Shown here piece after piece: positions 24,386 through 62,717 of a DNA stretch of 64,000 nucleotides. The notes under the pieces are model-generated. The model saw only the letters and a program-made list of their open reading frames with translations. It made no database searches and was not told where the DNA came from. How positions within the stretch are numbered: position 1 is the first letter of the stretch; each line of letters starts with the position of its first letter. The DNA is taken from positions 4,623,863 through 4,687,862 of the forward strand of contig CAJINV010000003.1 in the NCBI GenBank assembly GCA_905178155.1. Reading direction: 5' to 3'. Source of the DNA: Amoebophrya sp. A120. Lineage: Eukaryota; Protista; Dinoflagellata. A program made the translations under genes and the position numbers.

Positions 24386-27300
24386 ATGGAACAAGACGGT
24401 TCCGACGTGGATCTATCCGACGACGACCTGGATCCGTTGACCGCAGAGCAATGCCGGACGAAACTGCTGCTGCTCCTCGAGGAGCGCAAGCGCAAAAACC
24501 GGCTCGAGGAGCGGTTGGTGCTGAAGATGCGGAACCTGAACGACCAGCTGGCGGAAAAGCGGGATCAAGTCGAGGGACTGCAGCGCACCCTGGAAACCGA
24601 ACAGGCAAAAGTGGAAAACGAGGTGCGCACGCGCAGGGCGGAGCGTCAGAAGCGGCTTTCCGAGATGGACGTGCGCATTCGGCAGTACCTCACGGAGGTG
24701 CTGTTCCGCAGCAAACAGCAACCCAAAGCGCTCGCAAACAAGGAGGGCGGCGCCGAGCAGGACCAACAGCTGGCCAAACCCGCCAGCGCCGGGGGCTCGT
24801 CTGCCAATTTGTCCATGATTCTCGTCAGCTATTTCAAGCCGGGCACGTCGGAACGCTGCGATTTGCGGTACCGCGTCAACGAAACGACTTCCGTGCGGCA
24901 GCTTCGCTACGACAGCTGCAAATACTGGCAGCTAGATGGCGACGAATTTGTCGTTCGCACCTCGGTTGGATCCAAAGTTCAAGGCGACATGATGGTGCAC
25001 GAGGTAATTGCGTAAAAAGCTGGGTGACCGATTCCTAAAGGCTTAGACGATGAATATAGAGAGATTTTTACTCATTTCAGACCGAGATAGCGTGAGCTGC
25101 ATTCAAAATTGCTGATCTGGTAACCAAAAAGTTTTGCCTACGACTTATTGTTGCTTTCCAGAACAAGATGACCACCAAGAAGGCAACCGCAAGATTTCAA
25201 AACTTCTGACACCCAGATTTTCAAAGACGGCGAGATCGCACAAGTGTTTCTGCTTCCCCGGATCATGAACAACACGGTGGTGAGTGAAGCGGAGAAGAAG
25301 TCGATCCTCCCCAAGACCGGGAAGCTTGGACGTAAGAGCGCTAGCCTCGAGGAGGGAGCAATGTTGGCCGGAATTGGTGCCACCGGCGAGCAGGAACTGC
25401 GGAAGTGCGGCGGCGGCAGCTTGATGGTCAAGATTGCGGAGTTGAAGCCGAGTGAGTACCTGGCGCGCATACGATTTCGCGACATCCTCGTGTATCTGTT
25501 ACTTGCGTTGATGTGGGCGTGGCTCTGGCTGTCGAACCAACGCTGGCCCGGGCAGAGTTTTGCAATCGTCGAAGACATGGCCAGGGTGCTCGTCCACGAC
25601 GATTTCTACCAGATCAACTCCACCGCGCAGGCACTCGTGTGGTGGCAGCGGTCCTACTCCCGGTTTCTCAGTCCCCCCTTCACGCAGTACAACCTACCCT
25701 TCGGATTTTTGCGGTTGCGGCAGCAAAAGGTCCAGTACACCACGTGTCCGAGTCCCATCCTCAGCCTGGGAGAGGCGCTCCTCGCCGGCCGGAATTGCAC
25801 CGACGACAGTGCGCCCGAGACGTCCGGGATGTTGTCCGAGGGGCTGTACTATCAAATGTAAAAATGTCTGGGTCTGGAAGATTGCAAGGTTTGCCATGCA
25901 TATTTTGCATGACCCGTGATGTCTGCGATGTATGCCCCAGCATTACAATTTTTTTGCGGGTATCTTGATGCCTATCCCGCATGACAAATGCCCTCTCCGC
26001 GGAGCAAAAACTGGACGCCTCTTGCTGCTCATGCAATACAGATTTTTTTAGCTTCCAAAAATAGCATCACAAGTTGCATTCTTCCAGACCCAGACACTTT
26101 TGCAATTCATATGTACGCGTACTGGAATCACGTCGATTCGCACGGCCGCATCAAGGGCGGGAACTACGGCCGCGGCCCCACGCCGCCCTACATGTACACC
26201 TCCGACGGCAAACTGTACACGCTGCAGGGCAGCAGCGGCGAGAGCTTTGACAGCAGCGGGTACCTGGTGGACTACAACCTGATGGAGGACGCGCCGCTCG
26301 TGGCGACCAGCATCGAGCAGGACATTTTGGCGTTCCACCAAAACAACTGGCTCGACGCGCGGACGCGTCTGATTACCTGGTCCGTCACCGTGTACAACCC
26401 GCACTACGATCTTTTTCTCTCGCTGGACTACATTCTGGAAACCCCTCCGGGCGGGCAGGCGCTGGCGCGGATCCAGGTGATGCCGTTCCGGCCCAACAAC
26501 CGGGAAACGGACCAGGAGAACATGGAGGCCGCCACGTTTCACATCCGCCTGCTGTGCGCCCTATACGTGCTGTTCTCGGTGATTCCCATGGAGGTGGCCG
26601 CCCGGGAGCGCGTGTACAAGGCCGGAGGCAAGTATTTGATCACGCTGATGGGAATCGCGGACCAGATGATCGTCCTGACCACCTTCGTCGCGTACTTCTG
26701 GCAGCTCGTGCTGTTCGGCCAGGACGCGACGGTGGACGTGATGCGCGACGGGAAGACGCAGTTCCAGCACTTTGCGCAGGACGCCGAGCGCTACCGCGTC
26801 GCCTTCGAGGTGGATGGGTTGCTGGTCATCTTCCTTATGGTGCGGCTGTCGCGGTACCTGGCGATTTCCCGCCGGATCTACCTGTTGTGGAAGGCGCTCG
26901 ACCGGCTGGCCCGCCGGTTCTTCTACCTGATGGCGGTCAATGTGATGCTTTTAATCTTCTGGACCTTCCTGGGCAACACCTTGTTCGGCCGGATGTACAA
27001 CGACGAGCACTTATTGAGAGGAAAAATGCTTCCACGCCCAAAGTTGCAATAATTTGTGATGCGAAGTTTCCAAATGAATATGAAAACTTTTTGTCAGAGC
27101 GGGGTAACAAACCTCCCATAAGAAGTTACCGGCTAACTTCTCATCCACCCGGCCAGGTGCATGAGAAGTTAGCCTCAGCGAGCCCGTCCGCGGTTGCTAC
27201 CGCCTTCCCCGTCGGGCTCGCGCCCGTCCGTCGTTCCCATTCCCAGATCTCGGCTGGAGGGGGGGGGTTGAGTACATGTAAATAAAGGAGTTGAGCACTT

Positions 27301-28823
27301 TAATATATGCGCGCAAAAGTAATTCGCGGAATGAATCTCTACAAGTAGCATTTGATACGCATTTCTACTCCTAGAGTCTCTAGCATGCATGTAAAAGTAA
27401 GAAGTAGTATTTGTTTGATATGCATTTTCCCCCCCTGGTTCCTTCGTGTTGGTTGGTTTGGTTGATATGCATTTTCCCCCCTTGCGAGTCTGGTTTAACT
27501 CGCAACCAAACCAACCAACACGAAGTAACCAGGGGGGTAACCAGGGGGGAAAGTGCATAGGTTTAACTCGCAGCCAACTGCTCGCGCGCATACGTGCGTA
27601 GATCTCTTGACATCCGTCTTGAGGTTTAGGGCCGGAGCGCTCTCAACACTGCTGAAGCTTTAGAACCTGAAGGGAGTGCACGCCCGAAAGGATCAGGGCG
27701 CAAGGCTTTTCGATAGCGCTTTTTTCCAACTGGCTTCATAATTCGCTTACTCTGTTGCTTTTTTCTCCTTTTTTCCCGGGACCAACTGGCACCAAGAAGT
27801 TTTTCTTTTCGCTTGTCCCCACCCGGACAAATCGGTGTAGGTCTAGGTCTAGGCTTAGGACCATCAAATGTCCTCCTCCGCGTCCGCTGTTCCGACCTCC
27901 CACCGTCCCGCCGTCGTAAAATCTTCTTTCCTCCTTCAGTCCCGGATCGCCGCGACGTCGTGTTTCAGGGTTTTAGGGATTTAGGGTTCCTAGTTCGATT
28001 CACATGCATATAGAGACTCCGCATGTCAAGCGCTAAATTACCTTTACATGTACTCAACCCCCCCCTCCAGCCGAGTCCGAGATCTGGGAATGGGAACGAC
28101 GGACGGGCGCGAGCCGGACGGGGAAGGCGGTAGCAACCGCGGACGGGCTCGCTGAGGCTAACTTCTCATCCACCCGGCCGGGTGGATGAGAAGTTAGCCG
28201 GTAACTTCCTATGAGAGGTTTGTTACCCCGCTCTCATGCATGAAAGGAGTATGCGTCTTTCTGATGCAGAGTCTAGGCGTTTACCGTGTCGCTTGCATGA
28301 CAAGCGCCGCTCTTGCTGGGATCTTTTGGAATACAAATTTTTGCTATTCGCGACTGGAAATCTGTGATGCTGATAGATGCAAGAGGGCGAATGTTTCGTT
28401 TATTTGAAAGGTTTGCAATACAAATGCTCCCAGGTTCGGGGGTGGGGGCATTTTTCATTGTAATAGCACTGGCACAGCATAAGGATAAGCCTGATCTCCG
28501 TGTTCCGACTCTACCGCGGGGACGGCCGCTTCCTCTGGATGCCCGATCTGCGGCAGTCGCTCCAGCGGGACACGAGTTTCTACGTGGCCGCCAGTTGCTA
28601 CGCGGTGTGCTTCTACGGATCACTGGTTTTATTGCTGCAAAAAACGTTCGTGGCACTCGCAATCGAGAGCTTTGCGTTGATCAAACTCAGCTACGATCCG
28701 CGGTCCCAAGCAAATTGGAACCGGGAGCGAATATTTCGTTGGGTGCTGCCGGATCTGGTCTACAACATGGGTGCAACTCTGGTAGAGCGGCTCGAACAAA
28801 AATTGTCCCAAGATAAAACTTGA
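24386..28823 (+). CDS. Second polycystin-2-like channel with N-terminal coiled coil and possible ubiquitin-like domain, 4 exons
   Basis: GFLRLRQQKV, FDSSGY, NNWLDARTR, VYNPHYDLF motifs and pore SLISVFRLYRGD; GT-AG intron 25004-25216; non-canonical introns 25850-26116 and 27012-28470. Confidence 0.85.
25850..26116 (+). mobile_element. Introner family A copy 1 (element 25850-26111 plus TSD tgtac)
   Basis: ~30-bp TIR tatcaaatgtaaaaatgtctgggtctggaag; 5-bp TSD; removal gives EGLY|AYWN in frame. Confidence 0.92.
27012..28470 (+). mobile_element. Introner (element 27012-28465 plus TSD gcact) carrying a nested TIR element
   Basis: ~70-bp imperfect TIR (tattgagaggaaaaatgcttccac vs reverse complement tattacaatgaaaaatgcccccac); removal gives NDEH-W-HSIRISLISVFR in frame. 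Confidence 0.88.
27097..28233. mobile_element. Non-autonomous TIR element with ~185-bp near-perfect TIRs and 3-bp TSD (tca), possibly Harbinger-like
   Basis: gagcggggtaacaaacctc...gaggtttgttaccccgctc; tca at 27094-27096 and 28234-28236; no transposase ORF. Confidence 0.88.
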
Positions 28824-29516
28824 AAGCGGTGCTATTTCCTTCTTCTTCTCCACATTTTTGTTTTATTTTCCATCCCGAGCCGGAGCCGTGGGGGGGCATA
28901 GAGTTAAACATTGATAAGCTATCTCGCTGCTCCGGCTGGTGCATGAAAGTAGGGCCATGTGGTAGAGTATACCTTGCACGAAAGTGCTTCTTGGAATCGG
29001 CTCTATCTCTATCGCTGAAGAGTTCCTAGAAAGGCGCATAAACGAAAAATCCTTTGTGCTGGTTTGCTGTGCGAGTACTCACTTCTGCGGCTTGATGGTT
29101 TCCTTGACACGGACCGAAACAGGGGACGGGCCGGCACGTTCGAGAGAAGATGAGGCGACGAAAGAAAGCGAAGGATTGACAGATTTACAACGATCGGTTT
29201 GAGGCAGTAAAATACTGGAGGAGCGCAGGAAGCTTGCATAAATTTAGGACTGGAATATAATTTGAAGTCTTGTGAGTGAGCCGAAACGATGAAAGCAAAA
29301 GCAAGTAATGAGGCGGTAGAAAAAATCGGATGAGGGCGGCAGTCATGCCAAAAGAGGAACCACAAATGATGTCCTCCCAAAAATGTGGGGCTTTCCAGTC
29401 CAGCAGCACAGCAAGCCCACCTTCGTTCCGCCGTTGGGTTTCGTAACCACAAGCGAAAACAAGTGGAACAAGAAAGCCGGAGCCATACTTGTGCTTCTCG
29501 TCCCGCCTCGTCGATA

Positions 29517-32287
29517 ATGGAGGGTGATTCGCCCGCGGTCGGAGGCGGCGCCGAGTCCAGCCAGTCGCCCGACAAGATCAGCCGCGGAAAGACACGAGTC
29601 ATGAGTGGCAAGCAGCGGCACCCAACGGACCCGACGAAAAAGGAAGAGGCAGCGAGCAAGGTGGAGGACAGCATGTTTCTCACCCCCGGTGGCATCAATG
29701 AAGTGTTTAAGAACCCTGCGCACCGCCGGGACCAATCACTTCTCGACCGACTGGTAGAAGCGCTCAAAAAGATGGTGGTGGAGCGCTTCCGGAGCTTGGA
29801 GCAGGCCTTCTACCAATTTGCCGAGAAGGGTTTCCTCACCCAAGCGCATCTGGACAAAATGGTGAAGGCGGTCAAAATCCAAGTCGGTATTCGTTTACTT
29901 ATCATTTTTGTGGCCGATATATGAACATTGGGATCCGCCAAGGGACTCTTGTCCGCGCTGAGGCACGTTTGAATTTGATATTTAGCTCTCACCAACCTTC
30001 GTCGAGATTTTGCTTTCTGCTGTCTGGTAAGTAGCCAAGTTGCGACTGGCATTTTGTGATATCTATTTCTCGTCAGACGGACGCGTGGTGCGTGCAATCC
30101 ACGATAGGATGGTAAACCCGGACACGAAAGTGGTGGGATTTCTAGAGTTTCAGACGGTTATGATGGACATGACTCTGCGGAAACTGAAAGGCCAGCTCCA
30201 AACGTACACGAGGAATCATCGCCGTGTGCGAGCGAAGATAACGGCTTTCGTGCGGTCCCTGGTCTTTCAAAACACCGAAACAATGTCTGCGGCGGTTACC
30301 CGTTTCCAGTCAAAATTGACCCTCAACTTTGCCGCGCGGCTTTGGAACTCGATACGACGAAAGATATCCGACTCGAACAATCTCAGCATGTCGCAATGTA
30401 TTGATTCTTCCTTGAAGTTTAAGGGATTTGGTTTTTACATACAAAGTTTAGCTCGAAGATCGACTCCATTCGTCACTGTCCCTTCTGAAGCAATTCTGCT
30501 CCATGCAGTAAAACAATTCCGCACTCATTCACTACAGTTTTGGGCCATATCCGCTCGTGGAAGCAGTTTTTCCACGAATACGAGTACGAATTTTTCGGCG
30601 AAATTTTCAAGAGGCTGGATAGGCAACAGAGTAACAGCGTGGATGTATTCCACATGATGCTGGCCCTGGTTTTTTTGAGTCCCGAGACGAACAAAAAGGT
30701 ACTATCGATGCGGACTTTGTTTTCGGCGCGAAGAAGAGTTTCTCACTAGGAGGATTTTGTTTTATCAATTTGTTCAGTTTCATTGTGCATTTTTCCTGCA
30801 GACGCTCGAACACAAATATGTTCAGGTTCGGTTTGAGACTGTGTTTCGGGTATTTGACACGGACGACGACGGTTGTCTTACGACGGACCAAATTTTGAAG
30901 CTGTACCAGACCATCCGCACGCTGATTCCTGTTCTCGCCAACGACGAGGTCACAGCCGCGGCGAACACTTTCTTCAACGACGAACTGGGCACGCAAGAAG
31001 GCCGCCGGTTGTTTGACTTCACCATGGACCTGTACAAAAGTACGTCCAGCAATTTGCTGACGTGGGATGAGCTGTGGTCCCTGTTCGACTACTCAACCTA
31101 CCTGAAGGATAACCTCATCCCCGGGCTGCACCAACTCAATTGGGTACTGCTGCTTGATGAAACTGTAACCAACATTACCATTGTACCTTCAGCAGGAGTG
31201 AAGCAACAAAATTTGAATTGACTGTTGCCACAGATGACGCCCATGCGCATGTGTCCATGGCATGAAAAATATGGTAGCGTACTGCCATGCTTAGTCAAAT
31301 GATGTGCCGATGCAGGTGCTGAGCGAAGACGTGGTGAGCAATAAACAGAAAGCCAAGGGCGACGGCGGTGGTGCGGAAGCGAAAACGGACATGAAACAGC
31401 AGCTTGCGAGGTCACAGTCTGAGGCGCATCTGTGGTCGGCCGGAGTGAAGCAAGGGTAAGTAAACGTATGCGCACGAGCAAGGAAGATTCTCTCTGTCTC
31501 TATTCATTATCCTGCCTCCTTTGCCTGCTCTTCAAGCTCATTTTTTTTTTCGAAAGAACCAGAAAGGTTTTCCTCTTCGGAACCAAAACAGGTATTGTGC
31601 TGCGCTTCGGGGCGAGTGGAAGTACGTTCCACGCACACTTTATCCTCGTGAACTAGGTGAGTCCGCACCTCAGGAACAGGGTTGTCATATTCGAAGTACT
31701 TACTGATGCGAACAAGACCAGCTATTTCAAAGCGCACCCGACTCATCTAGGAAAAGGTTGCAACGGGCATAAGTATCTAAGCGCACCCGATTCCTTCGAT
31801 AGGAAAAGCTTGCAACGCTGTTTTTCCCTGAGGTGCGGATACTTTTCATCACGACATAGAAGCCCAAATTGACAGCCAGGAATATCTCTTTTGGAATCCC
31901 GGGACCGGGCGCGATAACCGGGGCACCAGCGGAATTGCGCTTGGGAAGCCGGGTAGCGCATTGGCCGCGCTGGCAGTCGGCAGTAAGGGAGCTGCTTCCT
32001 CCACGTCAAGACAGGAAGAATCAACCACCCCGGAGGCCGATGCGGAGGGAGAGCCGGCGACCAAGCAAAAGTTCCAGAAACTGCGGCAGTCTGTGTCTGA
32101 TACCATGTTTGACCAGACCGCGAGCGTTCCGAAGGTCCACTCCAAGGCCTGGGGCCGCGAGGCCATGTTGCGGTTTCACCTCTATTCGCTTGCGAAAGCA
32201 AAGAAGAAGCAGGGCGAGGGGGAGCTCCGAGAAGATATCGGGGCGGACAAAAGTGCATTGGACAAGGCGCTAGCTTCTGCTTTCTGA
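29517..32287 (+). CDS. EF-hand calcium-binding protein, multi-exon; last junctions uncertain
   Basis: FRVFDTDDDGCLTTDQI and FKRLDRQQSNSVD EF-hand loops; GT-AG introns 29887-30076, 30398-30537, 30699-30825, 31144-31315. Confidence 0.75.
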
Positions 32288-32288
32288 G

Positions 32289-33561
32289 TACTAAGGGGAA
32301 AAGTTCAAGAATAAGAATTTCAACAAAAAAATCATCACTGGCCCTTGAGCAATCCCAGAGCCGGGCGCCCGGTTGCTGGTTGCGGGGCAGGATTGCTGGA
32401 AGGCCGAGCGGCGGAAGGGCACACCAGCAGGCCCTGTCGGTCCAGAAACCGGAGCACCCCGTCGATTCCGCAGGCGAGCCTGTTCCTGATGGCAGTTCAG
32501 TGAAAACACAAGAAAAGCCTCTCCGGCGCCCGACGTCTTGCCTCCTTCTCCCCTAATGAAGGCATGACCCTCCACGCACTGAACTAGTTAACTTCTCTCG
32601 GTCTACTTGAGCCAGTCTTTTTAACATGAAGAGCCTTCATCATTCACAGAAAACAGACTTACTTAGGCGCCGGCTTTGGCGCTCTACTTTCTTGTAGGTC
32701 TACAGGGGCTGCTGAATGAATATGAAATATAGGACCCGAGGCTGCTGAAGTGCAGCTCATGAAGGAGTGGCCCCACAAAGATATAGAAAAGGCCTCCGAC
32801 ACAGGTAGCATTTAGCTTCTGCGCTTTACAACTATGAGACACCAGCTTGGCCGTTATCTAAAATCTCAAGAATACCAACAAGGGGGACCTCCCAAAGGGG
32901 TCCCTAAATCCGTATTCTTGAGATTTTAGATTACGGCCAAATCGAGGGAATCAGGTGCGTCTAAAATCTCAAGAATACCAACAAGGGGGTCCGCCCAAGA
33001 CACCTCCCCGAACAGGGGTTTTCGGGGAGGTGTCTTGGTTTGGGGCTCTTTTCGCACCCCCATCCGATCAGCCAAATCGACCGACTCAGGTGCATCTAAA
33101 ATCTCAAGAATACCAGAAAGGGGGTCGCCAAGTGGCCAACTCAGGTGCGTCTAAAATCTGAAGAATGCCAAAAAGTGGGCAACTTTGGTGCCCGCGCAGA
33201 AGTTCGTCGGAATCGGCACAACTTCCGGGCCCCTGCCAAACGTCCGAGGTGAACTCCCTTAGTGTGTGGCGATTAGTGCTTTACTTTGTGGAGGTTAGTA
33301 GTTTACTGCGTCCGATGTCCCGTTCGGGCGCAGGAAGGCCTCCTCCGCTACAGTGCCATAGCAGGACCTTTCTGAAAGCAGCCCGACCGAATGAGTTGCG
33401 CGGCCTTTGCTATCCGCCCCCTGTTAGTGTGTGTTTTCCAAAAATGGGATGAGTGGCGTTTGCAAATAAAACAGCACGCAGCTACGCTGTGAACTGACCG
33501 CGACGAGTCGCGTATTGATTTTTTTGTCAGTTTTCTTATTCTTGAACTTTTCCCCTTAGTA
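32289..33561. mobile_element. 1273-bp non-autonomous TIR element with TAC...GTA ends and 5-bp TSD ctgag
   Basis: TIR tactaaggggaaaagttcaagaataagaa / ttcttattcttgaacttttccccttagta; internal repeats tctaaaatctcaagaatacca at about 32857, 32960, 33095, 33150 and inverted at about 32912. Confidence 0.9.
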
Positions 33562-33572
33562 CTGAGGAACGC

Positions 33573-33633
33573 ATCGGGGCGGACAAAAGTGCATTGGACA
33601 AGGCGCTAGCTTCTGCTTTCTGAGGAACGCATC
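33573..33633 (+). repeat. 58-bp tandem duplication of the EF-hand gene 3' end
   Basis: Copy of 32237-32288 plus gaacgc, bounded by atc microhomology. Confidence 0.9.
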
Positions 33634-34975
33634 AGAACGACCGGGGGAATAGCGCACACTTCTACCCAGTAGCGGTCGCAACAGTGAATGCAAATACAAT
33701 ATTCAAACTTAAACCAACTGCAATTGATTTGTTCGGTGCTCTACGCCGGAAATGTTTTTCCATTCTCAATTCCAAACTCAAACCACATTAAACTTTTCTA
33801 TAAATACGCACAGTGCAGCGACGAGACAGAGGAGGGTTTTTGTTTTAGACTGCAACAGACCACTCCAGCCAAATCCAACAGAATGTTGATCAGGCAGGGG
33901 TGCTGGGTATGCGAGGGGCGATTCGCGTCGAGTAACTTTCCCCTCCAAAAGTTTTTTTGGTTAAAATCATAAGAAGCGGCGTGCGCTGCTAACATACCTC
34001 TTGTATTCGACACTGCACACAACTTTGTCCCGCCGTGAGAGTTTCGTCAAAACTATGCTAATGAAACGTAAGTAAAACTCTAGGTTTGCTTTTGCAGAAT
34101 GTTTGCTTTGATAGAGGTTTAGAGCTGGTTTCCAAAAAAAAAACGTACACGTCAATGAGGAACACAGTTGTACGATGCTCAGCTAGAAGCAGGGCCTGTT
34201 TAATGAAGCCGTGGGCTCAACACCTGCGAACCATACCAAAGATCAAGATGTAGATATGAACAAATGAAGGCGAGCGCGAGACAAAACAAACATGCAACTG
34301 AACCAGAATGATTTGAATGCACTAGAAGTAGAACTTTCACTCGGCTTAGCAGGATGCGGAAGCGTGGCTGAATGTTTGTGTATTGTAATGCTGCTCTGTC
34401 TACAGGTCCTGCTTGGCTGGGCTTGTATTTTCTATGCGATTCGGTCGATCTCGTTTCGATGCCCAACTAGCATCAGCTCTCATTCGGTCTGGATGAATGT
34501 ACAAAACATCGTTTTTGCAATGAAAGATTGAAACTTTTGCGTACAGTATCGGTTCAACATTGTGAATTGAAGCTTCGGTTTCTAGTCGTTCAGCAGCCTG
34601 TTGGCTCTTTCGTCTTAACATAACGTGCATCAGCATCTGCATCGTTCGAAAAGTTGGCAGCCGAGGCATGCCTTTCACCTGCCTCTGGTCGTACAGGCGC
34701 GATAAAATTTAGGCGTCATGAATGAAAGGAACATTCACCACACCCATCAAATCTATTTTGGCTCAGACGTGCAGTCGCGCACGTATTTAATACACCCTTC
34801 CCGATATTGTAAAAGTAGTTTTTCCCAGTCCCAGATTACTTCCCCTTTTTATCTTCTTCGATGATGAATTTTTCACCGACTTGACATTGACTTTTCTATT
34901 TTGTATTTGGGTCATTTCATCACTTGTCTAACCACTCCTCCTTGACTTTTTCTGCATTCGAAGGACGGCAGCAGG

Positions 34976-37900
34976 ATGGCGGACAATATTAAGGTGTGCA
35001 TCCGGTGTCGGCCGTTCAACAAGCGCGAGCTGGAGCTGCAGTCGGAGAAATGCGTGGAGATGCCGATATCGACGCAGATTTGCGTGTTCGACCCCACTGA
35101 GGAGGGGGGCAACCGCAACGAGTTCGCGTACGACCGCTGCTTTTGGTCCACCGACGACACCAGCTTCGAGAAGGCCGACCAGCAGACGCTCCAGGACGAA
35201 GTCGGGCAGGAGCTGCTGGAGAACGCGATCAAGGGGTACAACGACACGCTGTTCGCCTACGGGCAGACGGGCAGCGGGAAGACCTGGTCCGTGATCGGCG
35301 GTTCCGACATCCACGGCGCCGACGCGGGGCTGCTGCCCCGGTTGATCACCAACCTGTACGTGAAACTGCGGGAGAGCAGCGAGTGGCAGTTCACGGTCAC
35401 GGTGTCTTACCTGGAGATCTACAACGAGCAACTCCGCGACCTCTTCGCCCCCAAGTCGGGCAGCGGCGGGCCGGGAGCCGGGGATCAAACCCGCGACAGC
35501 GGGGCGAACAAGCGCGCATCGACCAGCAGTGGTGCGAATTCGCAGAATCTGGAGATCAAGGTGCACCCCACGCTGGGGATTTTCGTGCCGGGGATGACGG
35601 AAGCGGTCTGCATGTCCGAAGACGAGGTGATGAAGATGCTGGATTTTGGCTTCAACCAGCGCGCCGTGGCCGAGACCAGCATGAACCCGCGGTCCTCCCG
35701 GAGTCACACGATCTTCACGATCAGCGTGGTTTTGTACCAGGGGACGCTGGAGAAGCCGACCAAGCAGCTGAACTCGAAGATCAACATGGTCGACCTGGCG
35801 GGGTCGGAGCGGCAGAAGAAGACCAACGCGGAGGGCGACCACTTGAAGGAGGGCGCGGCCATCAACCAGAGTCTGTCGAACCTGTCGCTCGTGATCCACG
35901 CCCTGGCGGCCCAGTGCAGTGGGAAGTCGAAGAAGAAGGAGCACGTGCCCTACCGAAATTCGAAGCTGACGCACTTTCTGCAGCCCGCGCTGAGCGGGAA
36001 CTCCAAAACGGTCATGATCGCGGCCGTGTCGCCCGCCCTGAACAACATCCAGGAAACGCTGTCCACGCTGCGGTTCGCCAACAGCGCCAAGGAGATCAAA
36101 ACCAAGCCGACCACGAACGAACAGAGCAACCAGTCGGTCATGGACCAGTTGAAGGATCAAATCAAGGAACTCCAGAAGCAGCTGGCCGCGGGCGGCGGCA
36201 CCGCAGGACCCGCTCAGCTCGACCCAAACATACTCAAAGAAATCCAAGAGCTCAAGGAACTCAAAGACAAGTTTGGAGGTGAACTACAACTTTACATTTT
36301 TTTGTTGACTACAGAATGATTGGAAAGTACTGAAGTACAACACTCTGCATTCAAAAATTTTCCGCTGTGTGGTCTAGTCCCTGGGTGAACAAAGTTTTCT
36401 GCATGAATAGACTCTTCAAGAAGTAGATTGATTGAATCTGTGTGTTTCAAGCATAGAAAACCACGAAATAATTAACAACAGAATCGTTCGAGGAGAAGCT
36501 AGCGCAGGGTGAGATGACGCGCGCCTTGCACGACGATCATATGGACGCTATGGGATTGATGCCTCCAGTATCAAATGTAAAAGTGTCTGGGTCTGGAAGA
36601 ATGCAACTTGTGATGCTGAATTTGGATTCCAAAAAAATCTGTATTGCATGAGCAGCAAAGGGAGTGTAATTTTTGCTACGCGGAGAGGGCATTTGTCATG
36701 CGGAAAAAGCATCGCGAAGCCCTCAAAAAATCTGTGATGCTAAGGCATGCATCACAGACATCATGGCCTATGCAAAACGTGCATGACAAGTCTCAGAAAT
36801 TTCCAGACCCAGACATTTTTACATTTGATATCCAGATGACCCGGATGCGCCATGCTTGCTGAGTATCAGTGCCGACGCCGCTCTCTCCGGAAAAATGTGC
36901 TTCTACGTCACCAAGAAGAAGGAGGTATTTATTTGTCTTTTCTGCCCTGCGTAAGCGTAATATCTGAAGGAGGCTACAGCAAACGGATAAAAAGTGTCCA
37001 TGGACTTAACAACTTTTTCTCGGAAGTTGTAGAGAAGAACTCACGTTTTCGTTTACGAATTTTTGAGGTCAGAGCTTCTACGCATCAGATGACTTTTCTA
37101 TACGCACAACTTCTGACAGCTGGTCCTGGGCTCCGGGTCCGACGTTGACGTCCGTCTCGCCGGTCTGGGAATCACGGAGAAGATGTGCGGTTTGAGGCAC
37201 TTGAATGACGAGGCGCTGCAGATCAATCTGTTCCTCGACGCGGAGAAGAAGCTCCCGGAGGTGTACCGAAACGGCATGCGGCTCGCTCCCACGGACAAGG
37301 TGCTGAATCACAACGACCGGCTTTTCTTCGGGAAGGCGTTCGCGTTTCGGGTGCTGATTCCCGCCGTCGCGCGCACCGAGGAGAAGCGGGAGGAGGTGCT
37401 GGATAAGGAATTCGATGACCTTGTGGGGGAACTGATGGACACCCAGTCCGAGAACTTCCACCAGACCCGCGAGTTTATGGAAACCATCGGCGAGCATGTG
37501 GGGCAGCAGAATGCCGAGCGGTTCCTGAAGCAGTTCGCGCAGTGCCTGCCCCTCGTCAACGAAGCGAACCAGATCGCGAAGGAGGTGCGGCCCCAGGATC
37601 GCTTGCTCATGCGCTTGGATGTCCTCATCGATCCGATGCAGTTCCGAAACGCCCCACCGGCGCTCTGCGTTCGCCTCTACAAACTGGCGCCACCGGAAGA
37701 CGGGCCCGTCGACAATGAGGGTATACTTGTTCAGCACTTTTCTTTGGAAAAAATTCATCTGGTTTTTGTTTTATCTGGGATGGTAATTCGTTTTATCATC
37801 TTGCATGGTAATTCGGATCATAATTCCGAGATTCATTCGCATGACACTCCTCTGGTCGTACCATTGGCGATGAAAAGCAGAAACCATGCTCTGCGTTAAA

Positions 37901-38562
37901 GTTTTTCGTACTTCGGTTCGAGTTTGATGTTGCTTTGTGCTACCTGCGTTCATCCTCCGACAAGAAATACAATGGCGACTCCTCGCGGCACAAACTTTTT
38001 CGATGTGCCTAAAATGCAAATCACTTCAGATTTGAAGCGGGAGTACGTGGTTAACACAACGGCGGCCATTGCGGAGGACCTGGAGGACATTTTCGTGGAC
38101 GGCGTGGTGGACGGGCGGGCGGTGGTGGAACTCGCCGTGTTTTCGTGGACCAATTTCCTCACCCGCTTGCACGGCATGCGGGAGACCTTCGACGACTGGC
38201 ACCACGGAAAGTTACACAACTGGGACCTGGAGCCGGATCCCTGGTCCGAGGTGTCCTACCTGGACCACCACGAGCACCATGTGGAGAAGTCCTACCACAA
38301 GTCGGCCGCGGCCGAGAAGGACGTGCACCTGGACGTGGCCCTGGAGAACCTGCAGAACACAAACAACCTGAGAAACGCCTCCGGGGCGCTCCTTCCAAAC
38401 GCGGGGTTGAACTCAAAGATCGGGGAGCTGGATATCGAGGCCGTTGCGGCCATGAGCCACGAGGACCGACAAAAGCACGCGCAGACCCTGTTTCGTCGGT
38501 TGCGGGAGTCGCTCACGGTGTTGCGACGAGAGTTGGAAATCGACACCACACATAATCGGTAA
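34976..38562 (+). CDS. Kinesin-3 family motor (motor domain plus FHA), 5 exons; may continue 3'
   Basis: FAYGQTGSGKT, MNPRSSRSH, VDLAGSER, HVPYRNSKLT; pre-FHA PCLLSISADAALSG; LNHNDRLFFG; GT-AG introns 36279-36481, 36925-37119, 37721-38029. Confidence 0.93.
36569..36835 (-). mobile_element. Introner family A copy 2, inverted relative to copy 1 (element 36569-36830 plus TSD tccag)
   Basis: Same TIR; interior is the reverse complement of 25850-26111; removal gives GLMPP-D-DPDAPCLL in frame. Confidence 0.93.
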
Positions 38563-39494
38563 GCGGTTATTTCGTACGCGTGACAGTGGCGTCGTCATAC
38601 ACCACACATCACGCATTTTTTTACACGAGTACTTTGTTTTCAAGGACAATCGTTTATTGTCTAGTTGTAGACCTTGCGTTTCATTCCACGTGCACATTAT
38701 TAAGGAAGTAGTTGAAGTTCGTACTATCTTTTTCGTAAAACAGTAACAGTGCGCCTGTACTACATAGACATGAGAATAGGAAGCATGCCTGGCACTATAT
38801 CCTGGACCTAGTTGTAATTCGAATTCCGCTTTGTGTCATCTGACCGCGAAAAAACTTGTGTGGTCACGAACTCTTCCGCTTTTTGTGAACATGAACATGA
38901 ACTCATTTATTCGTTGCGCGCCACGATTATGGTCGCTATTCTGGTGTTGTGTTACGACCTTTGTGCGTGAAACACAAGATGTTCGACGGGAGTCAATGTG
39001 TATCAAGCAGGTTGTACATATGATCGTTGTGCTGCCTCGGAGGCGAGGCCGTTCGTCATGGAGAAGCAAATGGTTCCCTGCCCTTCGTATTGTCGCACTG
39101 AAGTAGATGAAATACAATCGGTGTTGTCGTCGTAATCCAATGTTTATCCATCTTCCAGAGCCATGGATCAATGAATCGTGGGCCAATCGTAATCGTGAAG
39201 GATTTTCTTAGTAGAAGAAAAGGTTCACCTGTCGCTGTCATCATCGTCGGGAAAACGCTCCGTCGTGGCCTGAAGTACAAAAAGGACTGAAAGTGAAAAA
39301 GTAGTCTACAGCAGGAAAATAATGCTGTCGTGCTATCTAAAACTAAGGTTAAAACCACTCTAGTGGCGCATGCCGCAAAACACTACCAAACTTCAAATTT
39401 GTTGCAGCTTCGTGAAAACTTTCCAAATGTGTTTTTTGATGAAATCCGTTCCTTTGCTTTGATTTTCTGTTCTGGACAGCGACGGACAGAGTGA

Positions 39495-42400
39495 ATGTTT
39501 CATCTGCGTCCCATGGATGTGGGCTCGTTCCTCGAGGGAGTGGAGGAAACCGACGAGGAAGATGCAGTTTCTGTAGAGCCGGGGCTGTCGCTGTCGCAAG
39601 ACCCGGCTGTGCAAGGAGCCAAGCAATACCTGCAAGCCGGTAGCCGAACGTTGCGCGTTTCCGAACCGGCTTCAGGACAACAAGCCTCAAAGCGCGCCGC
39701 GGAGAAGCGGACTAGTGGGCTGCAATCTGAAGAACGCTGTCAGGACGCTTCTGTGCCATCATCAAGCCGACCTACCGACTCCACCACGAAAAGCCGCTTT
39801 TCAGACGGCGTCATGAAAGAAGCTCCTGCGAGCATGCAGCGCTCGACCTCACCCGTGTTCGTCTCTCGCCCGCCTGCTTTTTCGCCTGTAGAGACAAGCG
39901 CCGCAGTAGAAGAGACAAGGGACAATAAAAGCCCACAAGGGGCTTCGGTTAATGTTCGTGCGCAGTCTCCAAAGCCCTTCCGAGTCGTGAGCACAACCCG
40001 CGCGTCCAAGCTGCTTAACCGCTCGCCAGACAAATCGCTGACAACCGGGCAAATTCATGTGATTGCGGCCGGTCTTCAGAGCATCGGCGAGCGCGAGCAC
40101 GGATCGGAACAACATCTTCCGGGGGAACAGGCAGCATTCTCGCCCGGTGAGGTTTTTCCCGGCTCCGGCACGGAGGACGCTCTGTCCTCGCAAAGACACG
40201 GTGCTAGCAAGGAGGTGTCAGCACCGTCCCCCTCCTCGTCCTCCTCGTCAAAAACAGGAATGTCTCGATTACTCGCCAGTCGTACGCTGCTCCAGAAACT
40301 GGAGCCGGGCAGTCTTTCGGTTGCGCAGGAGAAGCTACGGCAGATCAGTTCGCCCACCGGCTCCTGCAGTACTCCCGCGGGCGATGTGATGATCTCGAGC
40401 AGTACTCACCTGTTAGACAATAAACCAAGGACACCTCCTGCTGCTCTCGACGGGGATGGTTTCGTTGTGAGCGAGACGCTTTTGTGGACCACAAGCAGAG
40501 GCAGCGACACCAAGGGCAGAAAGAACAACGAAGCAGAGCTGGAGCAGCTGCAGAGCACGCCTTTGGCTTCCGGGTCTGAGCGGGAGGAGGGAGCAGCAGC
40601 AGATCGGGGCTTGGCCACTGCCTACGCAGAAGCTGAAGTGGAAGAAGTAGAACTAGAAGACCCGAGAAACTATGCCTCGGAAGCGACTCTGGTAGCAGCC
40701 ATTGATCGCGTGGCTCGCTTCAGCGGGAAGGCCAAGCGCGCAGCTCTCTTTTCTGCCGAAGAAGAACAGGCGTATCGCGACACTGTGCTCCAAGCGAGTG
40801 GCGTGCCGGTTCGGAAGCAGAGAACTCGTATGTCCACGTTGCTAAAGAAAAAGCCCTCGGATGCTTCACCTGCTGGCGCTTTATCCCACGGTTGTAGTAC
40901 GGGGCAGACGACGAGTACGACTTTCATCGCTATTCCGAAGATTGCGGGTTTGGAGGAGGAGCGAGTGCTGGCAGCCGGTCCGCTCAGCGTCGTCGGTAGA
41001 ACAAACAGGGGCGCGCTGCAGGCGGAGGGCAATTATACCGGCTCACCTGCACGCTTGGAGAGCAGCCGAATTCCCATCGAGAAGTGGAGTAGCCGCTCGC
41101 CGCACAGCAAAGTGTCACTCTCCCGCCAGATTCGCGCGCGCGCTTTTCTTTTTTCGGAGGACGATGACGACACTGTTTCCTCGCGGGGCAGCAAGGGGTC
41201 GAGTCAGGGTGGTTTAGCTGGGCCGCCCGCACCAGACCCGGGCATGCGTTTCGTGATTTCCCCACCGGACAGCGGGAGTGCAAGAAATAGTCACTTTGAA
41301 TTCCCATCCGCTAGAAGCGTGCAGCAAATTGCTCCAGCTTTTTCCAACGGAAAAAACAAAATCCAAGAAAGTTTTGAGCAGCTACCGTTCGGTTTTGCAG
41401 CGAGCCGACGAAGGCAAGACAACGCTTCGGCCTCGTCCGGGAGCGCGGAGACGGCCAGTGGATACACGCGACGCAGCCTAAAGGACCGCAAGCCTCCGGC
41501 CTTCACGGCCGCGTTTTATCCAAGTACTCCGGAGGCGGGCGTAGGATTAGGAGACCATGCTGCAGGGTCAAGTGAGAGTTCGCAGGCCGAAGCGTCCACG
41601 GAAACAACTTCTGCTGTGGTTCTCGAAGATGGAGCAAGCGCGGGCCCCTTTCTAGTAGAAACTCTTCATAAGGCGACGAGCATGCGGGCGTCGCATAAAA
41701 ACAACGTAGTCGCCGTACCGGGTGGAAGCGAAAAGAAGCTGGACATGCGCGATTTCTGCCAACGACTACTGGAAGCACCGTCGCAGGCACTTTTTACTCA
41801 TGGCGAGAAAGGTACAGATAATCATGTCGCTGAAGATGTTCATGTTGCAGCGGAGCGCATAACCAGCAGAAATCAGAGCAAAGACAGCCAGCGTGCGGAG
41901 CCGATTTCGCCAAGTGCTAGTCATCGCGCGATTGCAATTGCAAAAGCACTTGGACCACGCGTCACCATTGTACAAGAAAAAATAGCTGCCAAGACCGAGG
42001 TACGTACTTTGCTTTTTTGTACTATCGCAAACATAGTAGCTGAGTTCTGAACTACATTTGTTGCTTCTTTTTGGCGACATTTATTAATTGCAAACCGATT
42101 CAATCGACGTCGAGCAGCAATAGATGCAAAGCTGGACTTGATGTGCAATAGCGATTGAACGTGATGAACTCGTAGGAACCATCAAAGCCGGGCGCTGGCG
42201 AGGAAGTTGAAAACGCACGACCCGATGCGGCAGCCGCCGTGATTCCGCAGCTCGGCGCAGGCACGCCGGAAAATGCTGCGATTCGAGAGTCGCGTTTTCT
42301 TATCTCAGCGAAGCTGCGCAACAAGTGTGGAAATGCCGTGGAGGCTATGCGAGAAATTGTGGCTGCGGGTGATGAAACATCAGCAGTGCGGGCGAACAAA

Positions 42401-44599
42401 GGCCTGCTGAAGCAGAAGATCCTTGCCAGCTCTAGATCTGATGCGGCAAACGCAACGACGTCCCGTGTTGACTTCGAACTCGCGCAACTCGGGCATGCCC
42501 AGCGGGTTACAAATCACAATCTGTTTCCGAAAGGTGAAACCACGGAGGCGCTGTCCGACGAACCGCACGAGCAGGACGTCGAAGGAAACGACGATGCAGA
42601 AGAAACCTTCCGTGGCACCTCTTTGAAAGCTTTGGTGCACCGAACCTCGGAGGCCAGCCCAAAGCGTCGCAGCGCCGAATCGTGCGGCGATCGGGCGGCG
42701 GCTATCCCCAAGCTTCACGCCGAAGATGGCGACAGGCCTCCGCGAGACGGCGGGAGCAGCGAAAACGCAAACGCGCCCCACCCTGGGTTGTGGTCGACAC
42801 GCATTCAGGATTTCCCGAGGCAAGCCGAGGCAATTTTTCGGAAACGGCGGAGCAACGCCATGGTGAAGGACTCACACGGCGGTGAGAACCCTTTGGAGCT
42901 GACGTTACCGGGGATGCACATGCCTCCGCCCGAGCCGGCGGTTCCCGACCTGCCTCTGCAAGGCGGATGTGGGATCGCGAACTGGAACTCTCTGCTCGCT
43001 AACCGAGGACCTGTATTGTGATTTACGTGAACCATGAAATGTCTGTGTACTGTCTTCCTCTTTCTTTGCGGTTCTTTCATCTATTCATTGCATGAGAACA
43101 ACATAGAAAGCGGTCTCTCAAATGGATGTGCAGGTATCACTCGAAGAGCCGGGCGTGGCCGCGCACCCTCGGGAGGAGTTGGAGGCGCGACCGTCGCAGG
43201 TGCAGGCACCGAACATTGCGCAGGTGTCCGAAATGCGGCCCAATGTTGTGGACGACAAAGTTGCGCGCGCGATGATGCGGGTTCGAAAGGGGCGGCTCCC
43301 GGAATCGTTCTTCGAGTCCAACTATCAAATGTAAAAATGTCTGGGTCTGGAAACTTGTGATGCTGAGTGGCGTAGCATGAGGGGGCCACAAGTGCTGGCT
43401 CAGCATGACAAATTTCTGAGCTTGTAGGTGTTGCCTGTTCTGCATGACAAACTGCGTCTCCGCATGACAGAAAAATGCGGCTCTTGGGCAACGTGCAGGA
43501 CAGATTTTAGAGTCATGCCAGACAAGCATGACAAACATGCATTCTTCCAGACCCAGACATTTTTACATTTGATACCAACCGATTGCGCAATCGAGTCTCG
43601 CACGAGCAGCTGGTAGAAGCGCACGATCGTTCAGCAGCCGGGGAGCACTTTTCTGCCGCGAGCGACAACATGGGAGGAAAAGTAGACATTGCCCCAACGC
43701 AAGCGTTGCATTCCATTTCGAGTGACAGTCCCTTGGCCCGATTGCGCGGCGGAACGAGGTCGAACAAATCGTCGCCCCGGAGGCAGCAAGAGAGCCCTAG
43801 TACTCTCGGAATCGGATTCCGATTCGCGACGAACACATCGCCCGGCCGCCCCGAGGAACCTGTCCCACCTCGGGTGCAGCAGGCTGACGAAGAAAATGCG
43901 GCGGAAGTAGTAAATCGCTCCAACGTCACCCGGCCGGTTTTTGCAGCCTTCTCCACGACCTCCCCGTCCGCAAATGCTGCAGCGGTTGGACAGGGTCTTC
44001 AGCGGGTTTCGCTAAGTGCGCGGAAACGCTCCGGACAAACACCGACCAGTCCCAGGTCGCGATACGTGTTTCATTACGACTCCCCCTCGGACATGCACAG
44101 CTCGGTGCGGAATGAGAAAGCAGCGGGAGTTGCAGCAACCGCAAGCGTGAGCGATAGCAGAACGGTGTCGCATTCTAGGCGGCCAGCCAGCAAAGAAGTA
44201 TAACAATGGTTTTTAAGGATGGTGTCTCTTGTTCCGTGCGCTCACAAAAAATTAAAATATGGGTAAACATGATTTAGACCACGACACTGATTTACTGATT
44301 TTGTTGCACAGAACTACGCCGCCGAGCTGTCCGAAGTGCCTTTGAGTGAGATTGAGTCGGAGCTCGACCGTATGCGAAGCAACCTTGAGGAGTCCATCCG
44401 CCGGTCACCACCGCGGTCGACGCGTCGTGTGGTCGATGTACAGCAGGAGGAATTACGGCGGGCAATTCAGATTGCGGTAAAAAAAGACGAACTGGACCTG
44501 TTGCTGCAAAACTTTGCGAAAAACAAGGAGGTATTCGAGAAGGTTTGCGAGCTCGTCGCGCACGAATTGGCCGACGGAGGAAATAAACCGTCGACGTAA
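39495..44599 (+). CDS. Large Ser/Ala/Pro-rich, probably disordered hypothetical protein, 5 exons
   Basis: ORFs joined in frame by GT-AG introns 42000-42175, 43013-43106, 44198-44311 and introner 43323-43579. Confidence 0.7.
43323..43579 (+). mobile_element. Introner family A-type copy 3 (element 43323-43574 plus TSD ccaac)
   Basis: Perfect 30-bp TIR tatcaaatgtaaaaatgtctgggtctggaa; more divergent interior; removal gives FFESN|RLRNR in frame. Confidence 0.92.
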
Positions 44600-48147: not shown

Positions 48148-48930
48148 CAAGCCGCGTCATTTGTTTGTTTCGAGTCTCTAAATTTTGTACAAATCCAATT
48201 TGACGAGGTGAAATAAGCAAAAAATACCATTGGCTTCCTGTACAAAGAAAATCTACTTTTGAAGATGAATTTGCTTGTGAGCGGCTATGTTTGTTGTACA
48301 TTGAGCTTCACGAAGATTCGAAGTAGACTGCACGTGGAAAAACTGAAAAACTATCACCGTGATATAATGAATTTACCAATACAGTAGGTTTGAAGTTGAA
48401 CAGCAAAACTGTAAAATCAAAACTCCGATGAAAAACTTGTTTTTGGAATTATGCTGCGTATCTGTGCCTGAAAAAATGTAACAAATTGCTACAATTGTGG
48501 GTAGTGCTCGGACATTCTTGTATTAACCGTGCTGCTGGACCAGCTAATCCTCTTGTAAATTACATCTTCGCTGTGGAATTCAACCTTTTTGCGTGCGCTA
48601 ATCTTCCAAAAAAAGGACCGACGTGTATGATTGCAGTATCTCTAAATAACAAAGACCGAACAAATCCGACGACGATACCCTTTTCCGTGAATCTTCCGTC
48701 CTCAACTACACTCTTGCCCCACCGATTGAGTAAGTACCTCTGCGGAACGTATTAGTGAATATGTGACGCAAGAATCGAAAACCGGCAACGTGGCTGTGGT
48801 ATTACGGAAAAGAATTGCTTCTCGCGGGGCTGCGCAGCGGCCTCAGCGAATAGAACTGGTTTCGTGCTGATGAGGCAGCTTCGTCAATGCTACAAGTTGG
48901 CAGGTTATGTCGCCACAGTGTGTCGATCAA

Positions 48931-50887: not shown

Positions 50888-51173
50888 GTTTTTTTGTGCC
50901 TGGACATGGATTGACTTGATACGTGTGAGTTGAGGAGCTCGAGGTTCGATGAGAGAGGAACGAATTATTGCAAGGATATCCGTTCTTGCTCGAGATGCGG
51001 TTGACGCCGCATTTTCTCGGAAGAGAGCAATTCTTGGTCTCTCGGTCACTGCAACATCATACATACGTATGTATGCACTGAAACAAGGCGAGCCATCGGC
51101 ATGCGTCTGCTACTGCTTTTAGAAGAGGAGGAATAAGTAGGAGGATTGAAGCATCAGGGGATCATCATCAATC

Positions 51174-61105: not shown

Positions 61106-62717
61106 ATGGCGTTCGTCCGTCGCGCGTCGCGGCACCGGGCGAGTTTAGGGGACGCCGAGTTCCCCTACGAGGCCGGGCGGTATGTGCTCTACGTCTCCTA
61201 CGCCTGCCCGTGGGCGAATCGGGCCGCGCTGGTGGCGAAACTGAAGGGTTTGGACGAGAAAGTTCTTCCAATCGTGTCCGTGCATCCCACGTGGCAGCGC
61301 ACGAAGCCGGGCGTGGACTCGCACTGCGGCTGGGTGTTCCGCGCGCCGGGTGCCGGCGTGGTCCCACCCCCTCGCCCTCCTGGACAATGTCACCGCGCAG
61401 GAGGGCAAGGTGGCCAAGGGCTCCGCGCTGAACGAGGTGAGTGCGGCGGGCGAGGCGGGCAAGCAGACCGAAATTCGCACGGCGAACTGCGGGGTGGACA
61501 GCTATTCGGGCTGGAACTGCCGCACGCTGCGCGAGCTCTACGAGAAGTGCGGCGACTCGCTCGAGACCGGGGGAAAATTCACCACGCCGCTGTTGTTCGA
61601 CCGGAAACAGCGCAAAATCGTGAATAACGAGTATTTTGAGTAAAAACGCCCCCACCCCAGAGTTGTCATGCAAATCTGCACGCCAAAAAAGTTAAAGTTT
61701 CTCATGCGGAGCGCCATGAGAGGCATTTTTTACCCGTTTTTTGGAAAAATTTGTGACGCTATAATCAGCATGATATACTAGAACTGTGATGCTGCTGAAT
61801 CAACAGCAGGATTACTCTACGAGGACAAATTTGTCATGCCAAACGACCAAAGCTGGCTGATTTGTCTAGCAGATTCCCCATGTTGACTCTGGTGTGGGGA
61901 CGTTTTTACAAATGATAACGAGTCCTCGGAAATCATTCTGCAGCTGAACAATTGGCCGGCCGACGCGAGCAACGGCGCGACCACCGGAAGTGTGGATTTG
62001 TGTATGATCGGAAATGGAGAAGGCGTAGACTTTGCATTTTTGTAGACTGGAGGTAAAGCAGCTCCTGGTTTCGTCGCTGAGGACGAGAATTTTTTTATGC
62101 GCAACATACTGATTCACTTTCAACACAGTTCGAATTCTCGGTCGGAGCAGAGGATCAAGATTACCGCAGCAAAAATCTGTACTCTCGCACATAGGAAGTT
62201 GAGAAGCAATCCTTTATTTTCCCGATCCATACCCGACCCTCTTCATTTGAAGAAGGATATCGACGAGTGGAACGAGTTCACCTACGACCGCATCAACGAC
62301 GGCGTGTACCAGTGCGGGTTTGCGCGCACCCAGGTCGCGTACGACCGGGCGGTGGAGAAGCTTTCGACCAGCATGCAGAAGCTCGAGGACCGGTTCGCGG
62401 AGGAACCAAACCGCGCGTTTCTGGTCGGCGACCAGCTCACGATTGCCGACGTCCGGCTGTTTCAAACTTTAGTTCGCATGGACGAGTGCTACGTGATCTA
62501 CTTCAAGTGCTACGCCGCGAGTCTGCGAAATTTCCCATTCCTCTTGCGGTACACCGTGCGGATCTACCAGATGCCCGAGGTCCAGGCCTGCACCTTTGTC
62601 CGGGACTGCAAGATCCACTATTTCACCTCGCACCCGCACCTGAATGCGTTCGCCGTGGTCCCGCGGGATTCACAGGTCGTCGAATTGCTGGAGCAACCAC
62701 CCGACACGCTGATCTAA
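61106..62717 (+). CDS. Glutathionyl-hydroquinone reductase (ECM4/YqjG-type GST), with a +1 frameshift near 61362-61371
   Basis: GRYVLYVSYACPWANR, GWVF, FTTPLLFD...IVNNESSEII, INDGVYQCGFARTQ, LTIADVRLFQTLVRMD, KIHYFTSH. Confidence 0.92.
61632..61922 (+). mobile_element. Introner (element 61632-61917 plus TSD acgag)
   Basis: ~48-bp imperfect TIR (tattttgagtaaaaacgcccccaccccagagt vs reverse complement tatcatttgtaaaaacgtccccacaccagagt); removal restores IVNNE|SSEII. Confidence 0.92.

Follow-up and report, generated by a model that had tools for sequence, protein, structure and literature searches.

We found that a family of introner elements in Amoebophrya sp. A120 lies in coding exons in both orientations and that three of its copies are skipped exactly in RNA-like contigs whichever way they point. 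These three copies lie in the window, by which we mean the whole stretch of 64,000 nucleotides (nt) analysed here (contig CAJINV010000003.1, positions 4,623,863 to 4,687,862). Each of them leaves together with one 5-nt copy of its duplicated target site, and the two orientations are equally frequent among the exon-embedded copies listed from another assembly. We hold with high confidence that removal takes place at the RNA level in both orientations. The elements are published introner elements of this strain (Farhat et al. 2021) and thus belong to a class that is already known.

Three copies in the window and their removal from transcripts

The copies, their target duplications and their host genes are as follows.

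24386..28820, + strand: host gene 1, a polycystin/PKD-channel protein of 832 amino acids (P0001), with two interruptions, copy 1 and the element at 27012-28465
25850..26111: copy 1, 262 nt, orientation A, in an exon of the polycystin-type channel gene
25845..25849 (left) and 26112-26116 (right), + strand: target duplication of copy 1, TGTAC, read from the sequence
34946..38562, + strand: host gene 2 (part examined), a kinesin motor gene in which GT-AG introns flank the exon of copy 2
36569..36830: copy 2, 262 nt, orientation B (opposite to copy 1), within an exon of the kinesin gene
36564-36568 (left) and 36831-36835 (right): target duplication of copy 2, TCCAG
42176..44197, + strand: host gene 3 (part examined), an unnamed coding gene holding copy 3
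43323..43574: copy 3, 252 nt, orientation A, with perfect 30-bp inverted ends and a diverged interior
43318-43322 (left) and 43575-43579 (right): target duplication of copy 3, CCAAC

A 30-nt terminal inverted repeat (TIR) is common to the three copies, and each copy is flanked by an exact 5-nt target duplication that differs from one copy to the next. The TIR starts with TAT, followed by seven looser bases and then by at least three A. Its 22-nt end occurs five times in the window when up to three mismatches are allowed, with no occurrence expected. Between 26 and 30 pairs can be formed by the terminal 30 bases of the window copies; the sense-strand TIRs of copy 1 form 26 Watson-Crick pairs and one G-U pair.

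The initial annotation had located the copies correctly, and our alignment of the three gave the orientations A, B and A. Copy 1 and the reverse complement of copy 2 are identical at 217 of 262 positions in an ungapped alignment, and their interiors alone (32 nt taken off each end) at 158 of 198, with a score of 276 against 56 for the best of 200 shuffles. The interior of copy 2 had been described as the reverse complement of copy 1, which is right as to orientation and wrong as to exactness, the match being 83%. Copy 3 carries the same TIR and a more divergent interior, as had been noted; 120 of 201 interior positions agree with copy 1 when both are read the same way (score 127, best shuffle 48), whereas the reversed comparison scores 79 (shuffle best 55). 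The interior is partly symmetric, with copy 1 and copy 2 scoring 81 on the same strand (shuffle best 53), and a GCAT(G/C)ACA repeat is present in both directions in a sub-terminal position within the elements.

All three copies lie in coding exons of the + strand, as first proposed, and each brings an in-frame stop into its host gene if it is kept. The frame is restored only by the loss of the element together with one target copy, that is 267, 267 and 257 nt respectively; the earlier claim of a clean frame on removal is therefore valid for both orientations, on condition that one 5-nt target copy leaves as well. The annotated Amoebophrya sp. A120 protein P0001 is identical to the window exons and is continuous across the site of copy 1 and also across the element at 27012-28465. 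The relatives P0002 (strain A25) and P0003 are colinear across the site of copy 1, and the kinesin relatives P0004 and P0005 are colinear across the site of copy 2, where the exon is short. Host gene 3, for which a Pfam search gave no match, has GT-AG introns that read on the + strand and shows 548 stop-free codons once copy 3 and the GT-AG intron 43013-43133 are removed. Since any insertion that duplicates its target would leave a clean frame on removal, the frame alone says nothing on splicing, and the evidence has to be supplied by the RNA-like contigs.

These are complementary DNA (cDNA) contigs from one study, possibly not independent of the data used for the annotation. The runs X1 and X4 were taken as RNA by guess and because GT-AG introns are skipped in them, and X5 is DNA-like. 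All three copies are skipped exactly in X4, each in one contig: copy 1 at the joint 25844->26112 (267 nt, depth 4.7), copy 2 at 36563->36831 (267 nt, depth 6.2) and copy 3 at 43317->43575 (257 nt, depth 8.6), the last in a contig that also skips the GT-AG intron mentioned above. Each joint has a 5-letter ambiguity that comes from the target repeat, of which one copy remains. The joint of copy 2 is also found in X1, at a depth of 270, within a 2630-nt contig that skips three GT-AG introns as well. None of the three copies offers GT-AG ends in any of the six possible registers, nor G(T/C/A)-AG ends, and no dinucleotide is common to both ends in any of the six registers.

Two explanations would leave the RNA itself uncut. 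The first is a reverse-transcriptase template switch across the repeat-flanked hairpin, with the insert kept in the RNA. Such anatomy is known to cause artefacts of this kind (PMC4176328), the RNA data consist of cDNA contigs throughout, and the skips run exactly from repeat to repeat. We nevertheless consider it very improbable, as retention would stop the frame in all three hosts and in the Rpb1 gene described below, only seven of the 68 exon-embedded copies listed from the other assembly contain an open frame of any kind, the host proteins are colinear with their relatives on both sides, and the 2630-nt contig of X1 runs through the copy 2 skip at high depth.

The second explanation is removal at the DNA level. 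Ciliates remove internal eliminated sequences from their DNA, and if the elements were lost from some nuclei or life stages, the RNA would come from a cleaned template. An exactly restored target site and ends that start with TA are in keeping with this, and only one DNA-like run is at hand. However, X5 covers the introns evenly, its contigs run into all three elements, and the copy 2 joint has a count of 0 among the joints listed for this run, with 159 more outside the listing; we regard this explanation as more improbable still.

A further observation concerns the end of copy 1. The raw RNA run X9 (2026, same species label) does not extend over the locus and contributes eight reads at window positions 25850-25883, in which this TIR stands with another flank; perhaps another strain has this TIR as well, or some RNA retains it.

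Orientation and target sites across the family

The summed depth of X5 is about 1e5 on the elements and about 25 beside them, which points to a high-copy family. A scan with the exact TIR returned at least 131 loci, all of them contigs of one other assembly (JACKZZ01). None of these matches the unique sequence of the window over 300 nt, and they may represent another strain or only other regions. The loci listed, to which the counts below refer, hold 132 elements; 125 were left after removal of duplicates, 121 were shorter than 320 nt and 116 had a target repeat with at most one mismatch. A strand call was obtained for the hosts of 82 of these 116, and 68 were embedded in exons, with at least eight coding-like codons on both sides. 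The family comprises at least 125 distinct complete elements, mostly 250-270 nt in length, whose best identities to the window copies are 90-97%. The 5-nt repeat is exact in 105 of the 125 listed elements and has a one-base mismatch in 12, and its sequences are varied.

To call the host strand we used a codon model that had been trained on the window; in leave-one-out tests it was right in all 115 calls made and left 25 of 140 test points uncalled. Relative to the host gene, 40 of the 82 called copies are in orientation A and 42 in orientation B, and the exon-embedded copies divide equally (34:34). Such a count over family members had been suggested initially; taken with the exact removal of all three window copies in X4, it bears out the claim that excision is independent of orientation. 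A comparison free of the model gave both orientations in 10 of the 17 listed loci with two or more neighbouring copies. Pfam domains matched 7 of 127 flank frames, all seven on the called strand (five beside A copies and two beside B copies).

One of these seven matches, Rpb1 in locus L027, shows what retention would mean for an essential gene, since an orientation-B copy cuts the Rpb1 gene inside a conserved motif and would bring in an in-frame stop.

L027:178-439 and L027:1201-2172: two family elements in the Rpb1 gene, the second of 972 nt and with an exact 5-nt repeat

All four bases are found at each target position among the listed copies. A GY-AG register is possible in three of the 68 exon-embedded copies in sense and in four in antisense, compared with 7% of flank 5-mers. 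AG is available in 41 of the 68 targets (52% of flank 5-mers) and GT in 29 (46% of flank 5-mers), so that no target constraint supplying a splice site was found among the 68. The arbitrary target duplication, combined with the mere three copies that allow GY-AG, is a stronger argument than the one first put forward from orientation. Since removal is exact in either orientation and at any target, neither the interior nor the exon bases can hold a signal that is needed; the information required must reside in the symmetric ends, together with a constant offset of 5 nt from one cut to the other. This agrees with the initial annotation, in which removal was held not to depend on strand-specific branch point or polypyrimidine signals, and we think it very likely that the termini and not the interior define what is removed.

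The imperfect target repeats show a pattern of their own. In 10 of the 12, and in none the other way round, the mismatch is a transition with G on the left and A on the right, or the equivalent T on the left and C on the right (loci L011, L052, L056, L057, L059, L070, L081, L086, L113 and L126). These one-way mismatches, which were noticed post hoc, hint at a polarity set at insertion. In other families the corresponding numbers were 3 and 4, with L056 and L070 counted as the main family, and no polarity is seen there.

End pairing and the route of removal

Our leading account, which we put forward tentatively and would place slightly short of probable, is that these are non-coding transposon-like inserts in either orientation whose removal is guided by the stem and carried out by a modified spliceosome lacking U1. 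Insertion would take place with a 5-nt staggered duplication of any target and in random orientation, through a putative transposase. Transcription would then run through the insert, for which folding predicts paired ends whichever way it points. The two target copies would each be cut once and in the same register, releasing the element plus 5 nt, and joining of the exons would restore the pre-insertion message that is seen in the contigs and in the annotated protein. The machinery that locates the paired TAT/ATA ends would most likely be a modified spliceosome.

This account is supported by the contigs of X4, in which all three copies and a fourth element are removed exactly and GT-AG introns are skipped as well. 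Predicted folds close the element ends in both orientations, and also across the 1454 nt of the fourth element. Farhat 2021 (PMC7789003) reports nearly all spliceosomal proteins in Amoebophrya with U1 not detected, which fits a stem standing in for U1, and the non-canonical TIR introns of Fritillaria are described as spliceosomal in the review PMC11282704. End-to-end pairing is probably needed for removal and, given such pairing, we lean towards catalysis by the spliceosome.

Several points weigh against the stem-guided, spliceosomal account. The joints of copies 1 and 3 come from one contig each, at the low depths given above, and the RNA evidence as a whole comes from cDNA contigs of runs that were guessed to be RNA, in a single study. 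A comparison of mismatch types (the G-U test) gave no sign that an RNA stem is under selection, the sense-strand TIR mismatches being G-U in 39 cases and A-C in 40. Sense folds are more stable than antisense folds in only 34 of 64 comparisons made with preliminary strand calls. Copy 1 is removed despite three broken pairs in its terminal 30, and four to six broken terminal pairs are present in 13 of the 68 listed copies. The complementarity of the TIRs is also explained by DNA transposition alone, and nothing in these data bears on the catalytic machinery.

The initial annotation had gone on from orientation to a dependence on the symmetric stem and to a mechanism unlike spliceosomal splicing. 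Orientation independence stands, and the two further steps do not follow: the symmetric TIR presents the same 30 nt both ways, among them the invariant TAT/ATA at the termini, so that orientation can neither separate stem from sequence nor exclude the spliceosome, and the G-U test is null. The contrast that had been drawn with the polypyrimidine signals of spliceosomal introns is also weak in this organism. The ten GT-AG introns examined have 7-16 pyrimidines out of 22, without a marked tract, and no common branch motif was found among them. With tracts as weak as these in GT-AG introns, the absence of tract and branch signals does not set the elements apart. The orientation result therefore holds, and alone it is no proof of a stem-dependent or a non-spliceosomal mechanism.

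A route free of splice sites has to be weighed against the stem-guided spliceosome. Any hairpin closed by UAU/AUA would be removed with five further bases and independently of the spliceosome, through a structure-specific nuclease, which cuts at the foot of the TIR stem with a constant offset of 5 nt, and an exon-joining ligase. This would agree with the lack of a dinucleotide common to both ends in all six registers and with the lack of an invariant internal branch motif, the A of the TTTAC in the TIR being different in 25 of 68 3' arms; euglenid TIR introns, moreover, are reported to leave as circles and not as lariats (review PMC11282704). We judge it unlikely, since the spliceosome is reported as nearly complete in this organism (PMC7789003), the terminal ATA is kept throughout and offers branch adenosines, and the G-U test gives it no help; no such enzyme was looked for. 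If true, the route would be indifferent to interior, orientation, length (about 100 to 1450 nt) and target, and it would be matched to the 5-nt stagger of the transposase, amounting to a general transposon-erasing form of splicing.

In the other alternative the spliceosome reads the TIR as sequence, with TAT as the 5' site, ATA or a nearby adenosine as the branch, and the 3' cut at a fixed distance further on. The symmetry of the TIR would then give orientation independence for free, and the tolerance of broken pairs and the lack of a G-U excess would be expected. TIR position 3 differs in one of 68 5' arms and in none of the 68 3' arms (the search itself had fixed positions 1-2), and variation is seen at positions 4, 5, 7, 10, 14 and 15; the leading splice classes of strain A25 are TT-NN, with a fixed 5' end and a free 3' end (PMC7789003 Table S4). 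We find this reading quite unlikely all the same, because an intron could not be defined by signals as short as TAT and ATA alone, the two arms stay complementary in every one of the families whose inner TIRs are very different, and the 1454-nt element is still removed exactly despite its nested insert.

Other elements of the window and relation to known introners

Two further TAT...ATA elements, each of another family, were found in the window.

27012..28465: fourth TAT...ATA element, 1454 nt in length, containing a nested insert of 1155 nt; target duplication GCACT
61632..61917: fifth TAT...ATA element, in a glutathione S-transferase-like exon, 286 nt in length and with the target duplication ACGAG

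The fourth is skipped exactly in X4 (joint 27005->28465, 1459 nt), and at the fifth the reading frame would be kept if one target copy left with the element. Across other families the TIRs differ, and only the TAT/ATA termini, the A-run and the 5-nt repeat are shared (164 of 200 hits, compared with 7 when the sequence was shuffled). In the sequences covered here no autonomous transposase partner was found, and four longer TIR-bounded stretches contain no open reading frame (ORF) above 151 codons. Rfam gave no match at the gathering score over 25000-44500.

Some other features of the window were recorded. The nested insert (27079-28233, 1155 nt) has inverted arms of 158 nt that are 97% complementary and a longest stop-free frame of 155 codons; in X1 and X5 there are further copies of the outer element that lack it (joint 27078->28234). 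A 1273-nt element with TAC...GTA ends, a TIR of at least 30 bases and the 5-nt repeat CTGAG lies at 32289-33561, at the 3' end of a gene, and about 50 nt of the exon end upstream of it are duplicated downstream (33574 on), including an empty-site form. The joint 31639->31861 (TT..GA) was considered as a non-canonical intron and is read as an alignment effect, there being a GT donor at 31657. A second polycystin-domain ORF is present at 11791-12585, about 12 kb upstream of the channel gene, and low-complexity tandem repeats with units of 8-19 nt, arranged as a loose inverted pair, fill about 2 kb at 48900-50950.

The introner elements of A120 are described as having TAT-N7-AAA inverted repeats, direct repeats of 3-5 nt (5 bp in the example) and a length of about 240 nt, and as numbering 29,850 members in 1954 families with non GT-AG ends, for which a hairpin splicing model was given (PMC7789003). 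End pairing, the TAT motif, a 5-nt direct repeat, a repeated family and non-GT-AG removal are all found here, and the elements are the same in kind, with a TIR of 30 nt compared with the 8-20 nt reported. The start of the window TIR was not found in the accessible supplement text of PMC7789003, and the text and supplement of that paper, as far as accessible, hold nothing on element orientation. Subscription papers and figures aside, our literature searches turned up nothing on how Amoebophrya elements are oriented; the datasets of PMC12130899 and PMC9860276 may list the family. Of these two introner pipelines, the first uses same-orientation matches only and the second both orientations. The equal count of orientations, the uniform use of an arbitrary 5-nt target and the exact element-plus-5 rule are added here.

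Introners of Polarella glacialis and Aureococcus anophagefferens are alike in that introns with TIRs and target duplications occur either way round (10.1101/2020.10.14.339549; PMC10228655). They differ in that their G(T/C/A)-AG sites are part of the element or of a target limited in sequence (GHN6, AGGH, NAGGH), whereas the target is unconstrained here, and their simple two-way classes are biased to one orientation (10.1101/2020.10.14.339549), a bias not seen in our counts. Euglenid and Fritillaria borealis introns share a miniature inverted-repeat transposable element (MITE)-like origin, TIR stems, junction repeats and non GT-AG ends (PMC11282704). Euglenid introns have pyrimidine|purine junctions and are excised as circles, and Fritillaria borealis favours AG-AC/AG-AT after TAC (PMC11282704); neither rule appears to apply here, and among the 68 listed copies no register gives a uniform pyrimidine|purine junction, the register being ambiguous within the 5-nt repeat. 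MITEs themselves are alike in being short, non-coding and of high copy number, with TIRs, a fixed-length target duplication and two-way sub-terminal repeats, but the window elements are removed from transcripts.

How tens of thousands of non-GT-AG introns are removed in Amoebophrya has been stated to be open (PMC7789003; PMC11282704, 2024). The even division of orientations and the arbitrary targets leave the symmetric ends and a constant 5-nt offset as the only carriers of the information needed for removal, and turn a loose hairpin idea into sharp questions, namely whether there is a branch or none, in which register the cuts are made, and whether pairing or sequence is read. They also account for the spread of the elements, with little harm, into essential genes such as Rpb1.

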